From an uncultured virus (IMG/VR IMGVR_UViG_3300032011_003340) (lineage: Duplodnaviria > Heunggongvirae > Uroviricota > Caudoviricetes): DNA of 61,829 bases. A model generated the notes under the pieces. That model was not told the DNA's origin, did not search any database, and saw only the letters and a list, made by a program, of their open reading frames with translations. Location of the stretch: IMG/VR virus record IMGVR_UViG_3300032011_003340; one strand, 5' to 3'. Below are positions 7,783-47,925 of this stretch, in pieces. Position numbers and translations under genes: made by a program. Every line of letters starts with the position of its first letter. Position 1 is the stretch's first letter.

Positions 7783-8359
7783 CCTTTATATTTTTATATT
7801 TAATAATTTCAAGACATTCTGTTGCTTTGTCTAAAATCTGTTCAGTTTTAATTACTGTTTCCTCCGGACGGGGATTTTTAAGTAGGATTTTAGATTTACT
7901 TACTATGCTACTTAATTGTTTTATCAATAATGCATACTCATAATTTGTTAGCACTAATTTTTTCTGTTCTGTTTTCATCTTCATTTCTTTAGTTTTAACA
8001 ATTTCAATTAATTTTCTAAGACAAGCTAACTCTGCTTCTTCATAAACGGTGTAATCATCTGATTCAAATAGTGGTTCATTTACATTTAACACAAAAAACT
8101 CAAATGACTCAATATTTTCCTGTTTAGTTGTAAGATTAACTTCACTAAATAGTGAATATTTCTCTCTAAACCATCTAAACGCTTGTTGGTATAGTGGTGC
8201 GTGGCACAATTCAATAATATTATCATATATTACTTCCTTGAGTTCTATATATTCTTGCCCTCTTATTTCAACAATGTGATAGCTTTTTAAACATTCTTCA
8301 TCAAACCCTAACTCTTTCATAGCTAATGCTATATCATATGACACAAATTCTTTACTCAT
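7775..8359 (-). CDS. Conserved Bacteroidota phage protein
   Basis: EFVSYDIALAMKELGFDE...APLYQQAFRWFREKY...YEEAELACLRKLIEI motifs. Confidence 0.7.
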   Translation of the reverse strand: MSKEFVSYDIALAMKELGFDEECLKSYHIVEIRGQEYIELKEVIYDNIIELCHAPLYQQAFRWFREKYSLFSEVNLTTKQENIESFEFFVLNVNEPLFESDDYTVYEEAELACLRKLIEIVKTKEMKMKTEQKKLVLTNYEYALLIKQLSSIVSKSKILLKNPRPEETVIKTEQILDKATECLEIIKYKNIKDG

Positions 8360-8658
8360 CTTTGTTTTGATTTATCGTTTTTATATTCATAAAGAAACCC
8401 ACCTAAAATGATTACAGGGAATATAGAAATAGGATTAATCCCCAATATTATTAAAAATAACATACTAATTAATCCTCCAATCATAATTCCAAATCCTATT
8501 ATATTAATTTCACTCATCTTCTTTTAGTTTTGATTCTCTTTTCATTTCTAAAGCTTGTATTTTATCGGTTAGTTTATACAACTGTTCCTTTGTGAGAACA
8601 TAATCCCCATCCTGATTTACATATTTGTAATCCCTTATAATTTCTAAATCTTCTCTTT

Positions 8659-8865
8659 TCATAATGATTTAATTTTTGTATACCCTCTTTTAATATCTGT
8701 ATCTATCCAAAACCATTTTTTTGAGGGTATTATAACAATGGTTTTTCTTCTTTCGGGATATGCACAAGTTCCTGCTCTTTTTGAATAACCTAAAGACAAT
8801 AGCAGTTTTTCAAGGGAGTCATCTTTGTCCACTACAATCTTAGCTGTTTGGTTTTCCATCTTCAT
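8659..8865 (-). CDS. Hypothetical protein
   Basis: Small co-oriented ORF. Confidence 0.5.
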   Translation of the reverse strand: MKMENQTAKIVVDKDDSLEKLLLSLGYSKRAGTCAYPERRKTIVIIPSKKWFWIDTDIKRGYTKIKSL

Positions 8866-9023
8866 TTAGTTTTAGTTAATTAATACTTTTCTTGCTCTTT
8901 GTTATAGTCAATTTGAATTTTTTTACATTCATCCATTGTACCTATAAATAAATTTTTGTCTGTATCTAAATCTCTAACAAAATATAATCCTCTGCTTATA
9001 TCCCATTCATTTATTATCATAAT

Positions 9024-9227
9024 TTAGTTTTCATAGATGACCTCATCTACGTGGTGAATTGAATTTACAGGAACTGCTGAACGCAGGTTCCCATCTTGAT
9101 AAACTTTTATAAATTCATACCTACCCAGGATAACAATGAAGGTGCTGTACTCTTTATTGAGTATCCATTCACCAGAAATTCCTTTAGATGTAAATCCTCT
9201 TTCTTTTAATTCTTCTACTTTTACCAT
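9024..9227 (-). CDS. Hypothetical protein
   Basis: Small co-oriented ORF. Confidence 0.5.
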   Translation of the reverse strand: MVKVEELKERGFTSKGISGEWILNKEYSTFIVILGRYEFIKVYQDGNLRSAVPVNSIHHVDEVIYEN

Positions 9228-9411
9228 TTATACATTTTTTAAAAGCAAGGAGGCTCCTTAGTCAAAAACAATATCTGTTAAAATATGTAATTACCCCCTT
9301 GCTGTATTATTTAAATCATAACAGTTGCTAAAAACAACTCCTTTTAGTCGCAGATGTTTAGCTTAGTGTTGTATGCAATTAAAAAAGACATACAACAAGG
9401 TGTATAGGTAA

Positions 9412-9546
9412 TTATTGCCCTTGCTTCAGCTCTTTATTTAAAAGTTTCCATATTTCACCAGCTTCTGAGCTATCCATGTTTAACCATCTATAAGGAGATT
9501 CATTTGTAATCTTTAATATTTCTTCTACTAATTTTGATAATTCCAT
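9412..9546 (-). CDS. 44-aa ORF embedded inside attC-like unit 2
   Basis: Hand translation MELSKLVEEILKITNESPYRWLNMDSSEAGEIWKLLNKELKQGQ*; stop lies in the repeat arm. Confidence 0.6.
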   Translation of the reverse strand: MELSKLVEEILKITNESPYRWLNMDSSEAGEIWKLLNKELKQGQ

Positions 9547-9640
9547 AATTCATTTATTTTAAATCGGGCAAAAACTACCCATACACAATGCGTTAGAGTG
9601 CATTAAAACTCACAATAACAAAGTGCATAAATAATAATGC

Positions 9641-9829
9641 TTAATGTATCGGTTCATTAGGTAAAGCCATCCACCAAGTTTCGTTTTCATCACAATGTTT
9701 TACCATGTGCGTAGCAAATATACTTGTTGAAAAGCCTTTTTGTCCTTCGTTAAGTATTCTATAAACAAGTATCTTTTCTCCATCAATATCAACAGATGGC
9801 TTTCTGTCTTTTAATTTAATCCATTTCAT
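9641..9829 (-). CDS. DUF551-like small protein embedded inside attC-like unit 3
   Basis: MKWIKLKDRKP...WWMALPNEP is the DUF551-type pattern. Confidence 0.7.
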   Translation of the reverse strand: MKWIKLKDRKPSVDIDGEKILVYRILNEGQKGFSTSIFATHMVKHCDENETWWMALPNEPIH

Positions 9830-9930
9830 AATTTAAAGTTTTGTGTTTCAAAATCGCATTACTATTCATGCACCAAACGTTATGATGCAATTAAAAAAGC
9901 ACATAACAACGTATAACAAAAATACGTTCA

Positions 9931-10065
9931 CTAACTTTGGTACACTACTTTTATATCTATACTACCATCAGACCAAGTGTATTTATAGGTTCTTTCAACT
10001 CTGTTTCTCCACTCATTAAACTTGGTACTTATCAACTCTCTTTTGTAACCACTTTTCTCTTTCAT
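9931..10065 (-). CDS. 44-aa ORF embedded inside attC-like unit 4
   Basis: Hand translation MKEKSGYKRELISTKFNEWRNRVERTYKYTWSDGSIDIKVVYQS*. Confidence 0.55.
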   Translation of the reverse strand: MKEKSGYKRELISTKFNEWRNRVERTYKYTWSDGSIDIKVVYQS

Positions 10066-10115
10066 TTCGTTCACTTTAAATTTGTTATACAATGCGTTAG
10101 TCACAATAAAAATTA

Positions 10116-10253
10116 CTAATCTTTAATGTTTAACCTTTTTTCAATCTCTTCAATAACCTTGTATTCTTCATCTTCTAAATCGAAGTGACAGTCACTTGTT
10201 TTAGATATTTCATACAATTCCCTCAATAACTCTAATGTAGTTTTCTTTTCCAT
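10116..10253 (-). CDS. 45-aa ORF in the cassette body between attC-like units 4 and 5
   Basis: Hand translation MEKKTTLELLRELYEISKTSDCHFDLEDEEYKVIEEIEKRLNIKD*; flanked by AAAATTAC/GTAATTTT. Confidence 0.55.
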   Translation of the reverse strand: MEKKTTLELLRELYEISKTSDCHFDLEDEEYKVIEEIEKRLNIKD

Positions 10254-11084
10254 TTCCGTAATTTTAAAAGATGGCTAACAATAAATAAAATTAATAGTGC
10301 GTGTCAGCCTTTTCGCATCTATCAACTTGTAGTGGTCGCACTACTAAATTTTCCATCTTTATTTAATATTATATTAATATTAATATTATTAAAATAATAA
10401 CACATGTATACCATATGTATAACATATTTTTTAATTCTTTTTCCATTTTTATTTGTCTTTATAATAAATATTTACAATTATCCAAAGCATAAAATAAGAA
10501 AATAAACATATATGAGATATTAATCTTGGACAAGATAAAAAAATAATAAATAATATAATTCCTAATATTTTATATATTTTAATAAATCTTTTCATTTCTT
10601 TTTATAAAATTTAGTAAGTTTTTCAAGTTTTTCAAGTAGTTCTTTTTCTATTATATTAGTTGGATATCCACTTGCCATTATATGGCGTTTATTATTATTT
10701 TCAGCATCTTTTATTTCATTTTCTAATTCTTTTATTATTTTTTTTACACCTTTTTTAATAATAAAATTTTCAAATTCATTAAATTTTTTCATTACAAATC
10801 TTTTTTTTGACTTTGAACAAATACAAACATGTATATCCATATACAACTACAAAATAATGTAGTTATATTTTTACCTTCCATTAATGCTATTATACATGTC
10901 ATTACAAAAGTTATAGCAAGGATTTCATTAATCTTGTTTTTCTCCTCCATAAGGTTCTTTTTTAATTATTCTTGAGTGAATTGCAAAAATTAATGCACCA
11001 ATAAAAAAGCTACCAAAAAATAAAATTGGTAGCCCTATTATTAGTATTATTATCAATAATAATATATTCCACATGTTTAGTTTT

Positions 11085-11435
11085 TTATCTATTTATATAA
11101 ATATTTGCTTTAGGGTATTCTTTACATGCATTAATTAATTTTTCTAACCAAGGAATAAAATCTTTATATAATCCCCAACCATTTTTAGAATTAAATTGTT
11201 TAAAATGGTCAGGTTTTTCTTTCATCTCTTTAAGTCCTTTTTCAAGAGGTTTAATGAGATCTTTAGCAGATTTAATATTTTCATCATGTCCCCATAAAGC
11301 TTTATAAAATCCACCTGCTACAGCCATTGTATTTAAGTTATGTGTTATATTGGCATCAAATACTGTTTCTATACCACCTGAACCACAACAAAGACATGTT
11401 TCTTCTTCTGTCATTAAAGTTATATCTAAACTCAT
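11085..11435 (-). CDS. Conserved phage hypothetical protein
   Basis: MSLDI...NITHNLNTMA...NSKNGWG.Y...ACKEYP motif family widespread in phages. Confidence 0.75.
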   Translation of the reverse strand: MSLDITLMTEEETCLCCGSGGIETVFDANITHNLNTMAVAGGFYKALWGHDENIKSAKDLIKPLEKGLKEMKEKPDHFKQFNSKNGWGLYKDFIPWLEKLINACKEYPKANIYINR

Positions 11436-12677: not shown

Positions 12678-12963
12678 ATTTTAAATTATCAATCTTTTTT
12701 ATAATTAATTTTTGAATACATTCTAATTTATTTTCATATTCAATTCTTTTTTCTATATCAAAACGTTTTTTTTCAATTAAATCATTTAGTTCTTGTTTAA
12801 TTGATATTAATTCCGATATAGAAACATTTTCATAAATTATCATATTATTTTTTTTATAAGGACAATGTCTACATCCATTATTACAACAATATCCTATATT
12901 TTTTAAATATTTTTCAGTAAATACATAGCAACCAGATTCTATATAATAATTATCATCATTCAT
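12670..12963 (-). CDS. DUF5522-like cysteine-rich protein
   Basis: YYIESGCYVFTEKYLKNIGYCCNNGCRHCPY. Confidence 0.75.
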   Translation of the reverse strand: MNDDNYYIESGCYVFTEKYLKNIGYCCNNGCRHCPYKKNNMIIYENVSISELISIKQELNDLIEKKRFDIEKRIEYENKLECIQKLIIKKIDNLKFD

Positions 12964-14569
12964 TTATTTTAATTTTAATAAATTTAAATGAATTTTTAAT
13001 TTCATCTTTAATAGTTAAATAATATATTCCTGAATTTATATCTTTTAAATTTATTTTTAAATTATTTTGTATATTTGAAACTTTTTTTACATATATAGTC
13101 TGGGACAAGAGATTTATTAATTTTATTTCAATATTTGTTATGTCATTAGAATTTAAATTAATATTTAACTCATCTTTTACAGGAATAGGGTATACAAATA
13201 ATTTATTTTCTTTATTTGTATTAATTACAGTAATATTAGAATATTTGATTTTAGATTCAAATACACTTTTTATTCTATAATATGTAATATCAAAAGGTTC
13301 AAAATCATTATAAGTATAATTTGAATTTAAATTATATTCCATACTATCCATTGTATAGAAATTAATACCATTATTACTTTTTTGTATATCAAAATATTTT
13401 AATTCATCAGATATAGAAATATTCCATCTTAATTGATTAAAACTATTGTTGTCTATAGTTGTAAAATTTAAATCATCTAATGGCAATAATATATTACAAC
13501 CACCGCTAAGATTATTTAATGTATAACTATAATCACACTCATCTCCTGCAAAACCATCTACCATTAAAAATATACATTCTCCGGCTGCTACAGCAAATGG
13601 AGTAGAAGTCCATGTAGTTGCAGGAAATGATGGTGATGGTGCGTGTTCAATGACTGTTAAATTTGTCGCTGTCCCTCTAAATATAGTCATTTGTAAACCA
13701 TTAGCGGGTGTGGCAGTACAATTTGAAATATTTGTAAAATCTATACTCCATAATCCTGCTGTTGTTGTACAGAATGAAAACCATGAATCATTATTTACAA
13801 CATAAGGAACATCATCACCTAATGTTATACATGCAGGACATGTTGTTCCTAAATTATTATCTAAATCTTCAAATCCCGGTCCTCCATTTGTTGGAGAATA
13901 ACCTATATTTGTACCATTGATAACAACACCACATTGGTCAATCATTGTTGGTATAGAAGGTGTATTATTCGCAGGTACTGTATAAACACCTAAGCAATAA
14001 TCTATTGTTCTGTTATTACCTCCACCGCAATCTTCATTCATTATTTGAATAAGATAATCTGAATTAGGAGTAGTATTTATTTGAAAATGAAACCCGGGAT
14101 CAAATAAATCTAAAAAGAATTCACAATAAACTGATGCTGCTACAGTTGGAAGACATCCTGTTCCTGATGCAAATGGACCATATACAGCAATATGATACCC
14201 ACAATTAGTTCCAATTCCTGGCCTTGTTATAGATATATTCATAGCATTTAATGTACTTGAATTTACTCTATACCAAGAACTTCTTGGTGTAACACCTCCT
14301 CCTCCAATAGCATTACATGGAAAGAATGTAGTTTCATTAGGTTCTACTGTATTTGTTGCTGTTGTTCCATTTGTACAAGGCGCATCAAGTGTAAGAACAG
14401 TAGCATTATTACAATCATCATTTACTGTTACTCTCAAATGATTATTATTTTGTGTAATTACTCTTCTTAATTCATGAACTTCACTTGAAGAGTAATTAAT
14501 TGAATCTGGTACTAGTTGTCCATAAGATAATGAACAACTAGCTATTACCAAAAATATTATTTTTTTCAT
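12956..14569 (-). CDS. Secreted Cys-rich protein with T9SS type A C-terminal sorting domain
   Basis: Signal peptide; LPL..F...L.W...FDIQKS..G..F Ig-like module; C-terminal VYPIPVKDELNI...SGIYYLTI...KFIKIK. Confidence 0.85.
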   Translation of the reverse strand: MKKIIFLVIASCSLSYGQLVPDSINYSSSEVHELRRVITQNNNHLRVTVNDDCNNATVLTLDAPCTNGTTATNTVEPNETTFFPCNAIGGGGVTPRSSWYRVNSSTLNAMNISITRPGIGTNCGYHIAVYGPFASGTGCLPTVAASVYCEFFLDLFDPGFHFQINTTPNSDYLIQIMNEDCGGGNNRTIDYCLGVYTVPANNTPSIPTMIDQCGVVINGTNIGYSPTNGGPGFEDLDNNLGTTCPACITLGDDVPYVVNNDSWFSFCTTTAGLWSIDFTNISNCTATPANGLQMTIFRGTATNLTVIEHAPSPSFPATTWTSTPFAVAAGECIFLMVDGFAGDECDYSYTLNNLSGGCNILLPLDDLNFTTIDNNSFNQLRWNISISDELKYFDIQKSNNGINFYTMDSMEYNLNSNYTYNDFEPFDITYYRIKSVFESKIKYSNITVINTNKENKLFVYPIPVKDELNINLNSNDITNIEIKLINLLSQTIYVKKVSNIQNNLKINLKDINSGIYYLTIKDEIKNSFKFIKIKINE

Positions 14570-16417: not shown

Positions 16418-16502
16418 TACCCGGAGCGGGAATCGAACCCGCACTCCCTCAACGGGAACAGGATTTTAAGTCCTGCGTGTCTACCAGTTCCACCATCCGG
16501 GC
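16418..16502 (-). tRNA. trnL: tRNA-Leu(TAA)
   Basis: GCCCGGATGGTGGAACTGGTAGACACGCAGGAC-TTAAAA-TCCTG, long variable arm, GGTTCGATTCCCGCTCCGGGTA. Confidence 0.95.
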
Positions 16503-24127: not shown

Positions 24128-24199
24128 ATGTTCTACCAGGACTCGAACCTGGAATAACAGTACCAAAAACTGCTGTGTTGCCAATTACACCATAGAACA
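24128..24199 (-). tRNA. trnQ: tRNA-Gln(TTG)
   Basis: TGTTCTATGGTGTAATTGGCAACACAGCAG-TTTTTGGTA-CTGTTATTCCAGGTTCGAGTCCTGGTAGAACAT. Confidence 0.93.
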
Positions 24200-26717: not shown

Positions 26718-26791
26718 TGGAACTCAGTAAGAGAATCGAACTCTTATTTTCAGGATGAAAACCTGATGTCCTGCCATTAGACGAACTGAAT
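26718..26791 (-). tRNA. trnE: tRNA-Glu(TTC) with encoded CCA
   Basis: ATTCAGTTCGTCTAATGGCAGGACATCAGG-TTTTCAT-CCTGA...GAGTTCGATTCTCTTACTGAGTTCCA. Confidence 0.88.
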
Positions 26792-34406: not shown

Positions 34407-35096
34407 ATGAAATTAGGTAAATACGATATTACAATAAAAAATGTATGGGCTTATATACAAGGTAATACTCGCAAAATAGTTGATGAATTAGGGCCTGATA
34501 TATTAAAATCACCTAAGCATATACAAGAACAAATATTGTGGCGTAAAGCTATACATAATCCAGAATGTTCAGAGAAGGGTAGTTGCATTGAATGTCATTG
34601 TACAGTACCCGATAAGTTTTATTCCGATAAAGAATGCGAGGGAAGTTGTTATCCTTCTATTATGGATGAAAGTAAATGGAATAAATTTAACCAAATGTGT
34701 TTACGTCGTAAGATAGATATATTTAAAGATAAATTTGATTGGGACGTAATTATTTCTGATATTGATCATTTAGGAGATACATATTATTCTTCTATTATTT
34801 GTTCTGATAAAGCTATAGTGGACCTTGGCGAATGCCAAGTCGGTACTCTACTTGAACACAAGTTTGAATTATTCAACCCAGATGAAGAAGATCTAGTAAT
34901 TAATACTATGAGTATTAGTTGTTCATGTGGTAAAGCAATAATACCTGAACCTATAAAGTCAAATGAATTTGGACATTTAATATGTACTATAGATACAAGT
35001 AATAAAAGGTCAAATAAAGAATATGATCTATGGTTTACTATTCGATATAATGAAATAAAAAGAATGAATTTTAAATTAATCTATAAGACAAAATAA
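34407..35096 (+). CDS. Cys-rich Zn-binding domain plus DUF1573-like Ig domain protein
   Basis: C-x4-GSC-x2-C-x-C cluster; F.LFN....LVI.....SCSC motif. Confidence 0.6.
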   Translation: MKLGKYDITIKNVWAYIQGNTRKIVDELGPDILKSPKHIQEQILWRKAIHNPECSEKGSCIECHCTVPDKFYSDKECEGSCYPSIMDESKWNKFNQMCLRRKIDIFKDKFDWDVIISDIDHLGDTYYSSIICSDKAIVDLGECQVGTLLEHKFELFNPDEEDLVINTMSISCSCGKAIIPEPIKSNEFGHLICTIDTSNKRSNKEYDLWFTIRYNEIKRMNFKLIYKTK

Positions 35097-43511: not shown

Positions 43512-45080
43512 ATGAATAAAACAACTGAAATTATTTTACATGGGGTTAATACCCTTGCTAATACCGTCAAACAAACATTAGGTACTAAAGGTAGAACAAT
43601 TTTATTTAATGATGAAAACAATAGAACACATATAACAAAAGATGGTGTTACTGTTGCAAGACATATAATGTCAGCTGATGATTATGAGAATATGGTTATT
43701 ACTGTATTAAGAGAAGCATCGTTAAAAACCATGAAATCAAGTGGTGACGGCACCACTACAACAATGATATTGGCACAGTATATTCTTACTGAGGGACTTA
43801 AATTAATTGATAACGGGTTAAGTTATTATGAATTAAGTAAACAGATTGATAAAGCTGTTCAAAATGTTGTTGATTATGTAAATTATGATTCAATTAAAAT
43901 TGAAAACAATAAAGAACTATTAAAAGAAATAGCATCTATTTCATCCAATGATGAAAAGCTTGGTGAATTCATTTATTCTATAATTGATGATATTGGTTTA
44001 TATGGTGATATCGAAGTTAAGGAAAGTCAATACTCAGAAACACGTGTTAACAAAACAAAAGGTATGAAATTACATAAAGGTTGGATTGAAAACTTTATGG
44101 TTAACGATACTCGCGAAATGTGTTTTAAAGCAGATGATTGTCACATTCTTATTATTGACGATGTTATTCAAGCCGTAACTGATATTGATCAATATATTAA
44201 ACATTTAATGGGGAAACCTCTTGTAGTATTTTGTGAGGATATCACTGATATTACTCTTACTCAAATAGAAAAGTTTATGGGTGCTACAGGTAATCCTATT
44301 TGTTTTGTTACTAATGATGGACATGGAGATAGAAAGCATTTATTAATGAATGATTTGGCTGCATTAACTTCATCTTATGTTATAGGAGCACAGGATGATT
44401 TTGATCCTCGTAATCTAGGATTTGCTAAACAAGTAAAAGTAGACGAATGGTATACTTCTATCTTAGATGGTAATAACGATGAGGAATTAATTGAAGACAT
44501 AATTTATGACATTAAAGAAATACTATCAGATGATGATAATAGTGATGAAACACTTATAACAAAAGTAGATCGTAAATTTCATAAAAAAAGATTAGCTAAT
44601 TTAACAGGGGGAGTTGCAGTTATACATGTAGGGGGAAGAACTCACATGGAGATGAAAGAATTAAAGGATAGACTTGATGATGCAGTATTAGCAGTAGAAT
44701 CAGCTATTAAACAAGGTGTTAATGTAGGTGGTGGTTCTACTTATTTAAACTGTCAAAATACATTAAATAAAAGATGTAAAAAAGAATTATGCTTTGAACC
44801 AGGTTGTCAATTAATTATTGATTCATTAAGTGAACCCTTTAAACAATTATTAGTTAATGCAGATCTGTTTGATAACTATGAAACATATAAAGAAAAATTA
44901 ACTGATGGTTTTGCATTAGACTTAAGGGATAATAAATTATACAAATTATCTAATGCTAAATATAGAGTATACGATCCATCTTCGGTTCTTATTGACTCTT
45001 TAATTAATGCATCAACAGTTGCAAAATCATTATTATCAATAAAAGATATAATATTTGATGGTAAAAAATTAAGTGTATAG
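43512..45080 (+). CDS. groEL: Phage-encoded chaperonin GroEL (Cpn60)
   Basis: TLGTKGR, TKDGVTVA, GDGTTT, RLANLTGGVAVIHVGG, ELKDRLDDAV motifs. Confidence 0.93.
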   Translation: MNKTTEIILHGVNTLANTVKQTLGTKGRTILFNDENNRTHITKDGVTVARHIMSADDYENMVITVLREASLKTMKSSGDGTTTTMILAQYILTEGLKLIDNGLSYYELSKQIDKAVQNVVDYVNYDSIKIENNKELLKEIASISSNDEKLGEFIYSIIDDIGLYGDIEVKESQYSETRVNKTKGMKLHKGWIENFMVNDTREMCFKADDCHILIIDDVIQAVTDIDQYIKHLMGKPLVVFCEDITDITLTQIEKFMGATGNPICFVTNDGHGDRKHLLMNDLAALTSSYVIGAQDDFDPRNLGFAKQVKVDEWYTSILDGNNDEELIEDIIYDIKEILSDDDNSDETLITKVDRKFHKKRLANLTGGVAVIHVGGRTHMEMKELKDRLDDAVLAVESAIKQGVNVGGGSTYLNCQNTLNKRCKKELCFEPGCQLIIDSLSEPFKQLLVNADLFDNYETYKEKLTDGFALDLRDNKLYKLSNAKYRVYDPSSVLIDSLINASTVAKSLLSIKDIIFDGKKLSV

Positions 45081-46326: not shown

Positions 46327-47925
46327 ATGTCAGTAAAAACATTTGAAAATGCCAAATTTATCCATAATGGACAATTAAGACCTACCGTATTAACAGATGG
46401 TCTTTTGGCAACAGGTACAATTAAAGGACTTCACCTAAGTCAAGCTTTTGGAAGTACTGAAAATCTTGAAACCATAAATATGGGTTATGCTCAGATATTC
46501 TCTGCGACTAACCGTTATTATGGTAAACCAATGATTGGTATGACCGAAGCTAAAGGTAAAGTAAAAACAATTAATCGTTCAGGGTTCCGTTGGGAACTAT
46601 CAGGAGGTAATACACAAAAAGCTCGTATTACTCAAGTTCCATGTAATGATGCTAGACCTGGTCTTCACTTACAATCTTTTGATATTGTAGTTGATAAACC
46701 TTGGTTCAATGTATCAGATATCATAATTCCTCAGCATAATCAAAAATTATGTCGTGTAATGACTTATGGTAATGGTCAATCCCGTTCTCATCACCAAGTA
46801 GGCCCTAATGCATTTAGGTATACTATTCAATATGTTACTAATAACGGTAATGAATTCTTAGATCCTAAATATATTCAAGAAGGACAGGAATGGTGTAAAG
46901 TATCCGGTGCTGTAGCTACAGAAGATAATATTGATGCTGGTGGATTCCAGTTCTATTCAATTTTTGAAAGTGAAGGTCAAATTCAACAACATGCAATTAA
47001 AGTAGCTGTATCAGATAAAGCTGCTCGTAGATCTAAACAAGCTATGGACGGTAAAGGTGGAATGGACGAATATGGTAAATATTTGAAAATGCTTTGGGTT
47101 AAATATGAAGATAAAGTTACAGGTAAACCAATGGCTCGTTTTATGGCATTGTTAGATGCAGAAGCATTTAATGAATTATATCAAAACTGTGAATGGACGT
47201 TAGTATTTGGTAAAACATCTAATAACATGGTATCTCCTGAAGGTCATCAAATTTTAACAGCTTCAGGTTTACGTCAACAATTAGAATCAGGACATACATT
47301 AGAACATAATGGTGCTCTATCTCTTGAAGAGTTAGAAGATTGGTTTGATTCTATCATTAAAGATAAAATCTCTGAAGGCGAACAAAAAATTATATTATCT
47401 GCAGGACGTGAATTCCGTAAAATGTTTGATAAGATGATTAAAGCAGATGCTAAAGCATTTACAACTGTTGACTCATTATTCTTACGTAAAGGAGATAATT
47501 TCCGTCATATGGATTATGGTTCTTATTTTGCTAACTATAAAGGATTTACAGTTGATATTTCTGTAATGGAAAATCCAGCTTATGACAATCAATACTATTG
47601 TCCACAAATGCACCCAGTACGTACAAATGTACCTATTGATTCTTGGCGTGCAGATATCCTTGATTTTGGTTCTAGTAAACAACAAGGAACAGGTGGAGAA
47701 ACCGATAATATTTCAATGATTCAAGAATCTTATTGTAACTATAACATTAGCTATAATGGTAAATGGTATGGCGAACATGATGGTAAAACAGGAATGCCTA
47801 TTACTGACGGTGGCTTGGGTCAAGCTGGAGGTGTATCAGGATATTCTATTTCACGTGAAAAATCTGTTGGTCTTATGGTTGCTGATGTAACTCGTTGTGG
47901 TGCAATATTCTTATCATTTGATTAA
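46327..47925 (+). CDS. Major capsid protein (crAss-like)
   Basis: 532 aa; FRWEL, SGLRQQL, NPAYD motifs; biased codon use; synteny. Confidence 0.8.
   Translation: MSVKTFENAKFIHNGQLRPTVLTDGLLATGTIKGLHLSQAFGSTENLETINMGYAQIFSATNRYYGKPMIGMTEAKGKVKTINRSGFRWELSGGNTQKARITQVPCNDARPGLHLQSFDIVVDKPWFNVSDIIIPQHNQKLCRVMTYGNGQSRSHHQVGPNAFRYTIQYVTNNGNEFLDPKYIQEGQEWCKVSGAVATEDNIDAGGFQFYSIFESEGQIQQHAIKVAVSDKAARRSKQAMDGKGGMDEYGKYLKMLWVKYEDKVTGKPMARFMALLDAEAFNELYQNCEWTLVFGKTSNNMVSPEGHQILTASGLRQQLESGHTLEHNGALSLEELEDWFDSIIKDKISEGEQKIILSAGREFRKMFDKMIKADAKAFTTVDSLFLRKGDNFRHMDYGSYFANYKGFTVDISVMENPAYDNQYYCPQMHPVRTNVPIDSWRADILDFGSSKQQGTGGETDNISMIQESYCNYNISYNGKWYGEHDGKTGMPITDGGLGQAGGVSGYSISREKSVGLMVADVTRCGAIFLSFD

Follow-up and report, generated by a model that had tools for sequence, protein, structure and literature searches.

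Small genes between hairpin arms in a crAss-like phage: a probable integron-like cassette array without its own integrase

What kind of element encloses whole genes within hairpins, and how would such genes come and go in a phage genome? The question is raised by a stretch of 61,829 nucleotides (nt) from an uncultured virus (IMG/VR IMGVR_UViG_3300032011_003340), called the window here, in which an array at 9320-10356 holds small open reading frames (ORFs) between complementary arms bounded by AAC and GTT. The window is part of the genome of a crAss-like phage, and its major capsid protein matches PF23898. In integrons the cargo lies between recombination sites of roughly 60-140 nt, the integrases act on folded strands of these attC sites, and the systems are regarded as bacterial devices. 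The original prediction for this locus was an integron-like array turned inside out, with genes carried in the attC hairpin. Our analysis indicates that the array is probably an integron-like phage cassette system that has no integrase of its own and keeps its cargo in the hairpin loop.

This reading is carried by the anatomy of the array, a family of similar hairpins in other phages, the linkage of that family to a tyrosine recombinase elsewhere, complementary cassette ends, a strand bias in the stems, covariation of the arms, and unit borders at AAC cores. Arrays of this type are found in phages of Bacteroidota. By analogy with integron integrases on folded attC strands, a tyrosine recombinase would cut and join the folded coding strand at the AAC/GTT core, and the enzyme would be encoded in the unseen part of the genome or supplied in trans by a co-infecting phage.

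Whole genes between hairpin arms

The array and its ORFs are read on the minus strand, referred to below as the coding strand, and coordinates are given on the plus strand. From 10356 down to 9320 the order is a composite hairpin, gene A between two feet, units B, C and D, and a gene-less compact hairpin. All of the elements first listed at 9317-10352 are present where they had been placed, and the features are as follows.

10286..10356, minus: composite hairpin upstream of the array, lacking a TAAC core; RNA fold of -17.9 kcal/mol, equalled or bettered by 2 of 200 shuffles
10272..10279, minus: 3' foot, GTTAGCCA on the coding strand (TGGCTAAC on the plus strand), opening the gene A body; 7 of 8 positions complementary to 10096-10103
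10116..10253, minus: gene A, 45 amino acids (aa), between two feet
10096..10103, minus: unit B, 5' foot, reading TGACTAAC on the coding strand and GTTAGTCA on the plus strand
10081..10090, minus: 5' arm of unit B, GTATAACAAA on the coding strand; duplex with 9911-9920 of -10.6 kcal/mol
9931..10065, minus: gene B, 44 aa counted from its ATG, within the unit B loop
9911..9920, minus: 3' arm of unit B, from duplex energy
9879..9907, minus: short hairpin from GTT to AAC with a near-empty body, loop TTTTTTAATT and one unpaired base; RNA fold of -7.1 kcal/mol, matched by 0 of 200 shuffles
9856..9873, minus: 5' arm of unit C, 18 nt; duplex of -26.7 kcal/mol on the coding strand versus -17.5 on its complement
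9641..9829, minus: gene C, 62 aa, DUF551-like; entire ORF in the loop, its stop codon abutting the 3' arm
9623..9640, minus: 3' arm of unit C, from duplex energy and pairing kept in relatives
9592..9619, minus: short, imperfect hairpin from GTT to AAC with a near-empty body and loop TTTTAATG; 66 of 200 shuffles fold as well
9566..9586, minus: 5' arm of unit D, 21 nt; duplex of -31.3 kcal/mol on the coding strand versus -23.3 on its complement
9412..9546, minus: gene D, 44 aa; entire ORF in the loop, its stop codon within the 3' arm
9400..9420, minus: 3' arm of unit D, from duplex energy and recurrence in relatives
9368..9396, minus: short hairpin from GTT to AAC with a near-empty body and a perfect stem of 8-9 base pairs (bp); matched by 0 of 200 shuffles
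9320..9370, minus: gene-less compact unit with AAC at 9320-9322, arms at 9327-9336 and 9355-9362, and GTT at 9368-9370; weak, its fold equalled by 22 of 200 shuffles

In units B, C and D the coding strand reads AAC, a 5-nt gap, the 5' arm, a leader of 19-27 nt, the ORF, the 3' arm, a gap of 0-3 nt and GTT, and each unit is followed by a short hairpin of 28-29 nt that runs from GTT to AAC. The second to fourth units had been described as holding complete small ORFs with their leaders between arms, and this is what we find: the arms are 10 bp long in B, 18 bp in C and 21 bp in D, and the C and D stems exceed those of shuffled sequence. The loops measure ~145 nt in D and ~215 nt in C, with arm-to-arm distances of 187 and 251 nt, respectively. 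Gene A sits in the ordinary cassette position between two feet; ORFs B, C and D are enclosed by complementary arms, and the body between a GTT foot and the next AAC foot is reduced to a hairpin loop of 8-13 nt. All four units have the integron-like core arrangement of AAC, a gap of 3-5 nt, arms, a further gap and GTT. The gap is asymmetric (5 nt versus 3 nt), hairpin 9879-9907 contains a single unpaired base, and the long stems of C and D have no single-base bulges. The first unit, described earlier as an empty site, is present at 9320-9370, but its fold taken alone lies within chance. The ends pair in the window as GTTGTATG with CATACAAC (perfect), as GTTATGTGC with GCATCATAAC (one bulge) and in a third, imperfect pair.

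The arms pair over their own genes, as arm-only RNA duplexes on the coding strand reach -26.7 kcal/mol for C, -31.3 for D and -10.6 for B, and neighbouring arms across the intergenic gaps give only -2.9 and -15.8 kcal/mol. C and D are the top two stems with 60-450 nt between their arms on the entire minus strand of the window; in 30 dinucleotide shuffles, one stem of -25 kcal/mol or lower appeared in three, two such stems appeared in none, and -31.3 was never reached. A minimum-energy RNA fold of 9300-10130 includes all three gene-enclosing stems. On the non-coding strand the C and D stems are weaker by 8-9 kcal/mol, and both have G-U pairs at the same two positions.

At the upstream end of the array, the inner stem of the composite hairpin (10329-10344) came up as terminator-like in a terminator scan, and the hairpin as a whole may be either the first site or a terminator. 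By analogy with integron cores, the border of unit B would lie within AAC. Pfam gave no match for any of the cargo genes. Gene A was also without a family match in PHROGs; gene C matches phrog_924, of unknown function, at E 9.7e-05, and the homologues of gene B form one cluster only (91% identity, 58 aa).

A hairpin family beside a phage recombinase

Through the leader of gene C, further viral contigs were found in which TAAC, an arm, the leader, the partner arm and GTTA follow one another in hairpins of 120-130 nt with folds of -33 to -39 kcal/mol. A scan for TAAC-arm..arm'-GTTA then returned whole arrays in viral contigs besides the window; contig L011 alone has 12 elements. On the coding strand the family site consists of TAAC, a gap of 3-5 nt, an arm of 18-22 nt, a loop, the second arm, a gap of 0-3 nt and GTT(A/G), and the arms in the window fit the short-class consensus GTGTATG.. 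of L011 and of ~40 scan matches. The spans of 283 distinct family elements fall at 80-99 nt (98 elements), 110-139 nt (134) and 170 nt or more (26). The leader itself, an 18-nt sequence (GATTTTGAAACACAAAAC; window 9830-9855, minus) that follows the 5' arm immediately, is shared without change by 21 viral stretches, and in seven of these (L113, L115, L116, L119, L122, L128 and L129) it stands in a TAAC-arm-leader-ATG setting before unrelated genes. An identical hairpin of 128 nt with the start codon in its loop is found in L119 and L129, where both flanks differ.

In most family members the loop holds the leader and start codon of the following gene. In 148 of the 283 elements the loop contains the start of an ORF of 25 aa or more that continues through the 3' arm, and where the next element lies within 1.5 kb (n=114), 55% of these read-through ORFs end between -60 and +10 of its TAAC, often using the TAA as stop. 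Five of the 283 resemble the window in holding a complete ORF whose stop codon lies within the 3' arm, and one of these ORFs is DUF551-like. L131 has the loop-cargo layout of the window with another gene and a short TTTTAATG hairpin in front; it has its 5' arm and leader in common with L208, and the two ORFs differ. The cultured Polaribacter phage P12002L has an element of 205 nt around gp41, at 32695-32491.

On the coding strand the 283 family stems contain 667 G-U pairs versus 30 A-C or C-A mismatches, a bias that is somewhat inflated as the elements of this census were selected with G-U allowed; only six elements are found on the opposite strand alone. Because the stems contain these G-T (G-U) wobbles, the coding strand alone folds well. 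Complementary cassette ends, which the original prediction had likened to those of integrons, are a property of the family: in 13 of 22 adjacent pairs, all 5 nt that follow GTTA are complementary to the 5 nt that precede the next TAAC, and four more pairs match at four of five positions, compared with 1 of 28 within single hairpins and 2 of 138 non-adjacent pairs. In family arrays, complementarity of 9-10 nt between the two feet spans gene bodies of 300-800 nt. Among 59 blocks common to different arrays, 18 have left ends at -2 to 0 of TAAC, 13 have right ends at +5 to +9 of TAAC, and two ends fall at GTTA. The unit is thus best drawn from one TAAC to the next, with the hairpin ahead of its own gene, because the ends of common blocks and of ORFs cluster at TAAC. 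The cargo had been placed antisense to the attC top strand, in agreement with common blocks whose two ends lie at TAAC when read on the coding strand and with the folding of that strand; in integron terms the coding strand corresponds to the 'bottom' strand, with the cargo in inverted orientation.

The L011 array ends 78 nt before the gene for a tyrosine recombinase of 267 aa in which Phage_integrase and SAM_4 domains are recognised. Among NCBIfam models it scores best with XerA/integron integrase (171 bits) and TIGR02249 (155 bits), both under cut-off; the TIGR02249 match scores 154.7 bits in two stretches against a cut-off of 265. The nearest solved chains are XerC-like, IntI4, XerA and XerD, the match to IntI4 (2a3v) being limited to query residues 39-173. 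Relatives of this enzyme (63-100% identity) mark 80 viral loci, which were not de-duplicated and in part duplicate each other, and these have 314 elements upstream on the same strand in 396 kb versus four downstream in 548 kb. Where at least 3 kb of upstream sequence is available, 48 of 49 loci have an element and 38 have three or more; any downstream element is seen in 2 of 72. The background of 108 unrelated phage loci contains 26 elements in 1.06 Mb, of which 11 are in L011. Bacterial relatives of the recombinase (~45% identity) show a slight excess, with 43 elements in 0.64 Mb. The enzyme first proposed was a host or distant IntI-type recombinase; an Xer/IntI-clade tyrosine recombinase does stand beside the family arrays, but it is phage-borne, 267 aa long and not a host IntI. 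The window resembles these recombinase-linked arrays in its TAAC-gap-arm..arm-GTTA hairpins and in the folding of the coding strand, and differs in having no recombinase gene directly downstream on the same strand.

Likeness to integrons is extensive. Both have imperfect hairpin sites with ..AAC/GTT.. cores and complementary cassette ends, both exchange one-gene units at the core and have a single strand that folds well, and relatives of the array carry a same-clade tyrosine recombinase at the array end, placed as intI is relative to site orientation. The enzyme differs: the window has none, and that of the family is short, phage-borne and under the integron-integrase cut-off. Family cargo is read on the folding strand with the hairpin ahead of its own gene and start codons in loops, and in the window whole ORFs occupy loops of ~145-215 nt, leaving the usual cargo slot nearly empty. 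In integron attC sites, extrahelical bases and an unpaired central spacer set the choice of strand; the long C and D stems are without single extrahelical bases, and their strand bias comes from G-T wobbles instead.

Virulent phages, among them Polaribacter phage P12002L, have been reported to carry clusters of attC sites without an integrase (CALINs; Qi et al. 2023, PMC9892861), and for P12002L the accessible part of that paper gives two predicted sites. The first, P12002L_attC1, was called as attC by HattCI (PMC9892861) and is a member of the hairpin family at 30056-30008 of NC_028924; the second, attC2, which did recombine in PMC9892861, is not an evident family member. A loop motif, (G)TTTTAAT(K)G, occurs in short hairpins of the window (9374-9384, 9600-9607 and 9886-9896) and of L131, L411, L412 and L416, and it is also the loop of the compact site P12002L_attC1 (L130 30008-30056), so that a small loop can occupy either end of a two-stem structure. 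Like the CALINs, the array is an integrase-less, attC-like cluster in a lytic-type phage of a marine Bacteroidota host; unlike the present work, the accessible text of PMC9892861 describes no hairpin family, linked phage recombinase or cargo inside the site. A study of crAss phages, in the part available, found no integrase with IntegronFinder (PMC11054128). Our full-text literature searches returned no description of recombinase-linked arrays of the hairpin family or of cargo inside the site.

Units C and D in other contexts, and the rest of the window

Gain or exchange of units at the AAC/GTT core, on which the original prediction staked itself, is what the comparison of relatives shows, with unit C in three contexts and unit D in six. 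Gene C has orthologues of the same build in L411 (73% identity) and L412 (68%), which with the window make three flanking contexts. In the three-way alignment similarity starts after AAC and the gap and stops once the next AAC is reached; beyond these limits the three sequences have unrelated flanks. L412 belongs to a 93-kb record (G008), rated 100% complete, that has no relative of the capsid protein of the window. The C stem keeps 18 of 18 pairs in the three sequences, with four pairs changed on both sides and none on one side, and two G-U pairs are conserved; the short hairpin of the C units adds four more compensatory pairs. The arms of L411 and L412 are identical, so the covariation represents two independent lineages. 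To judge from these sequences, arm pairing across the gene is under selection.

The protein of gene D is conserved in 26 homologue clusters at 77-100% identity and, on this sequence evidence, is a real small protein; its exact sequence is also on record for a contig of 123,829 bases. Alignment of the homologues located the D unit in five further metagenome contexts besides the window, and the arm-to-arm distance is 187 nt in all six. Inside the unit identity averages 0.91, compared with 0.36 over the 30 nt that precede the 5' AAC and 0.29 over the 30 nt that follow the closing AAC. A 29-mer of hairpin 9368-9396 follows gene D identically in L417, L418 and L425. The 40-residue module of gene D is also fused in frame to other C-terminal parts, in some cases through the 3' arm and in others without a 3' arm, which suggests that front and back halves of proteins have been re-paired. 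It forms the N-terminal part of proteins of 54-154 aa (P0010, P0012, P0022, P0024 and P0025; L413 and L420-L424), some of which read through the 3' arm (..LPIH.VV..) and some of which have zinc-ribbon-like tails. Since hairpins are common to different genes and gene D is found in fusions, exchange is not confined to the AAC foot; it occurs also at the GTT foot and inside ORFs, which makes the system more mosaic than expected from a one-site model.

Public sequencing runs that contain the stretch carry marine metagenome labels, and in run X4 three contig pieces cover 8300-11200 with zero differences. Contigs of run X7 match the arms and flanks and skip 128-153 nt at genes A, B and D, with sides of only 20-30 nt; as the sides are short and the intervening letters unknown, deletion, replacement and diverged alleles are not distinguishable here. 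In run X5 one contig, with equally short sides, joins the leader of gene D to another ORF. The summed contig depth of X7 is 3-10 times higher on arms and short hairpins (9367-9463, 9561-9657 and 9852-9948) than on the intervening ORFs, a pattern expected if arm and hairpin pieces are common to many contigs, contig depth being a poor measure.

The array is local, as a relaxed scan of both strands found no further AAC..GTT units elsewhere in the window, and the loop and gap motifs are not enriched outside it. Downstream, below 9320, are only small ORFs together with two longer ones (194 and 179 aa) that lack a family match, and no recombinase gene. Rfam at E up to 10 returned no family for 8500-11000, two chance snoRNA matches aside, and only three tRNAs over the whole window; these tRNA genes (16418-16502, 24128-24199 and 26721-26791, minus) lie in the leftward gene block. 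A scan for sigma-70-type promoters gave 19 against 15.4 expected, which is no excess, and terminators on the coding strand likewise showed none. A Bacteroidota -33/-7 promoter in the 5' arm was considered and rejected, since by eye its pattern is inconsistent across relatives.

No close relatives were found for direct comparison of synteny, and the phage collection yielded short matches only. Proteins of neighbouring genes reach at most 58% identity to viral-contig proteins, the nearest record (G001) contains the structural module only, and tblastn of the small proteins of the window against 409 loci gave nothing at E 1e-3. The structural module includes the crAss-type capsid gene (46327-47925) and, just upstream, a gene for a GroEL/Cpn60-family chaperonin (43512-45080, plus). 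A type IX secretion C-terminal sorting domain and a DUF1573 domain occur in proteins encoded at 12956-14569 and 34407-35096; such proteins are typical of Bacteroidota and are consistent with a host in that phylum.

Competing explanations and what the array may mean

Several observations weigh against an integron-like cassette system. The absence of an integrase that had been noted at the outset was borne out: no tyrosine recombinase was found in the 61.8-kb window by domain search of ORFs of at least 150 aa or by tblastn, and none was found in the complete-rated record G008, which carries unit C. Four contig-only runs, in which joints are too short-sided to be read, revealed neither a recombination product nor a circle or a precise empty site. 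P12002L_attC1 was the sole site of six without a verified IntI1 junction in the available text of PMC9892861. The B arms (10 bp), the gene-less unit and hairpin 9592-9619 are individually no better than shuffles, the D and C loops of ~145 and ~215 nt exceed the loops of integron sites as we know them, and the wobble bias counted in the stem census owes something to the way elements were selected. Of the common blocks, 28 of 59 end at neither landmark. The same short hairpin follows different genes, as in the D unit of L416 and the C units of L411 and L412, and the gene D module is also fused to other C-terminal parts without the 3' arm (L413 and L420-L424). Lastly, the coding-strand wobble bias and the start codons in loops suit an RNA structure equally.

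In a tentative extension, possible but not favoured, the hairpin would be a two-slot, dumbbell-like junction. Cargo would sit either in the body between the feet or in the loop between the arms, and the loop slot would supply a leader, a start codon and sometimes an N-terminal module.

A role in RNA alone appears unlikely. It would make the 18-21-bp stems parts of a polycistronic early transcript, there for RNase processing, end protection or display of the start codon, with the units spread by ordinary phage recombination. This would explain why G-U pairs so outnumber A-C mismatches on the coding strand (667 vs 30), why the C and D stems are stronger there (-26.7 and -31.3 vs -17.5 and -23.3 kcal/mol) and lie within the minimum-energy RNA fold, and why two G-U pairs keep fixed positions in C, D and the orthologues. 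Loops that contain leaders and start codons, ORFs that start in the loop in 148 of 283 elements, and an 18-nt leader conserved among unrelated phages would follow too. It does not explain unit borders at a core of 3-5 nt with unrelated sequence on both sides, which is too little homology for ordinary recombination. Nor does a foot complementarity of 9-10 nt over a body of 300-800 nt have a plausible RNA role; it corresponds to the residue of circular cassette joints. The arrays are, moreover, tied to a tyrosine recombinase gene. A second role of the stem, in translation or RNA stability, is predicted as likely on the cassette reading itself, since start codons lie in loops and the stem would also form in mRNA, where an open loop would expose the start codon.

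Among phage systems the closest concept, as far as the available text of its sources goes, is that of PeSLs, repeats of a promoter and stem-loop that shuffle small early genes by homologous recombination. As in the array, small non-essential ORFs lie in a plastic early region with a structured element in front and are gained and lost as modules (PMC2839356, PMC4122927), the PeSL authors themselves liken PeSLs to integrons, and PeSLs form mini-circles in T4-type phages (PMC2839356). A conserved leader before each small early ORF, an arm and leader common to L131 and L208 with different ORFs, and the joining of the gene D front module to different back parts would all fit such units. We nevertheless hold this origin to be improbable. 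PeSLs as described in those sources are conserved repeats that recombine by homology, whereas the arms in the window are unit-specific and covary pairwise where a common repeat would be alike in every unit, and the borders lie at a core of 3-5 nt with no flank similarity outside AAC. Neither the sigma-70-type promoter count nor the inconsistent -33/-7 pattern supplies the promoters.

Weakest of all, and very remote, is the notion that miniature transposon-like elements, moved by a transposase, have the arms as their terminal inverted repeats, or that the arms pair by chance in an A+T-rich genome: inverted repeats do flank each gene, and unit 1, one short hairpin and the B arms each fall within the shuffle range, but no target-site duplication is visible, no transposase domain occurs among window ORFs of at least 150 aa, the arms vary by unit so that one transposase could not read them by sequence, and both forms were rejected for C and D, which exceed shuffles and in orthologous units keep their pairing through compensatory changes.

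If the two-slot reading were true, a recombinase acting at both feet of one folded strand could swap genes and re-pair protein halves, and the same stem in mRNA would display the start codon. Lytic phages would then possess site-specific shuffling of genes and of protein parts, and recombinase-less crAss-like phages would rely on co-infecting phages for it.

As an integron-like cassette system, the array would be a virus-borne relative of integrons, with a shorter enzyme in other phages, that keeps tiny accessory genes inside the recombination hairpin, which raises the question of the loop length that such an enzyme tolerates. Members of the family in the cultured Polaribacter phage P12002L open this question to bench work. 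One structure may serve both DNA exchange and the start of translation. Small early phage genes often act in host takeover or counter-defence. Loop genes that move as exact units among unrelated marine phages, including a crAss-like phage with no recombinase in view, would offer a concrete route for the rapid turnover of such genes.

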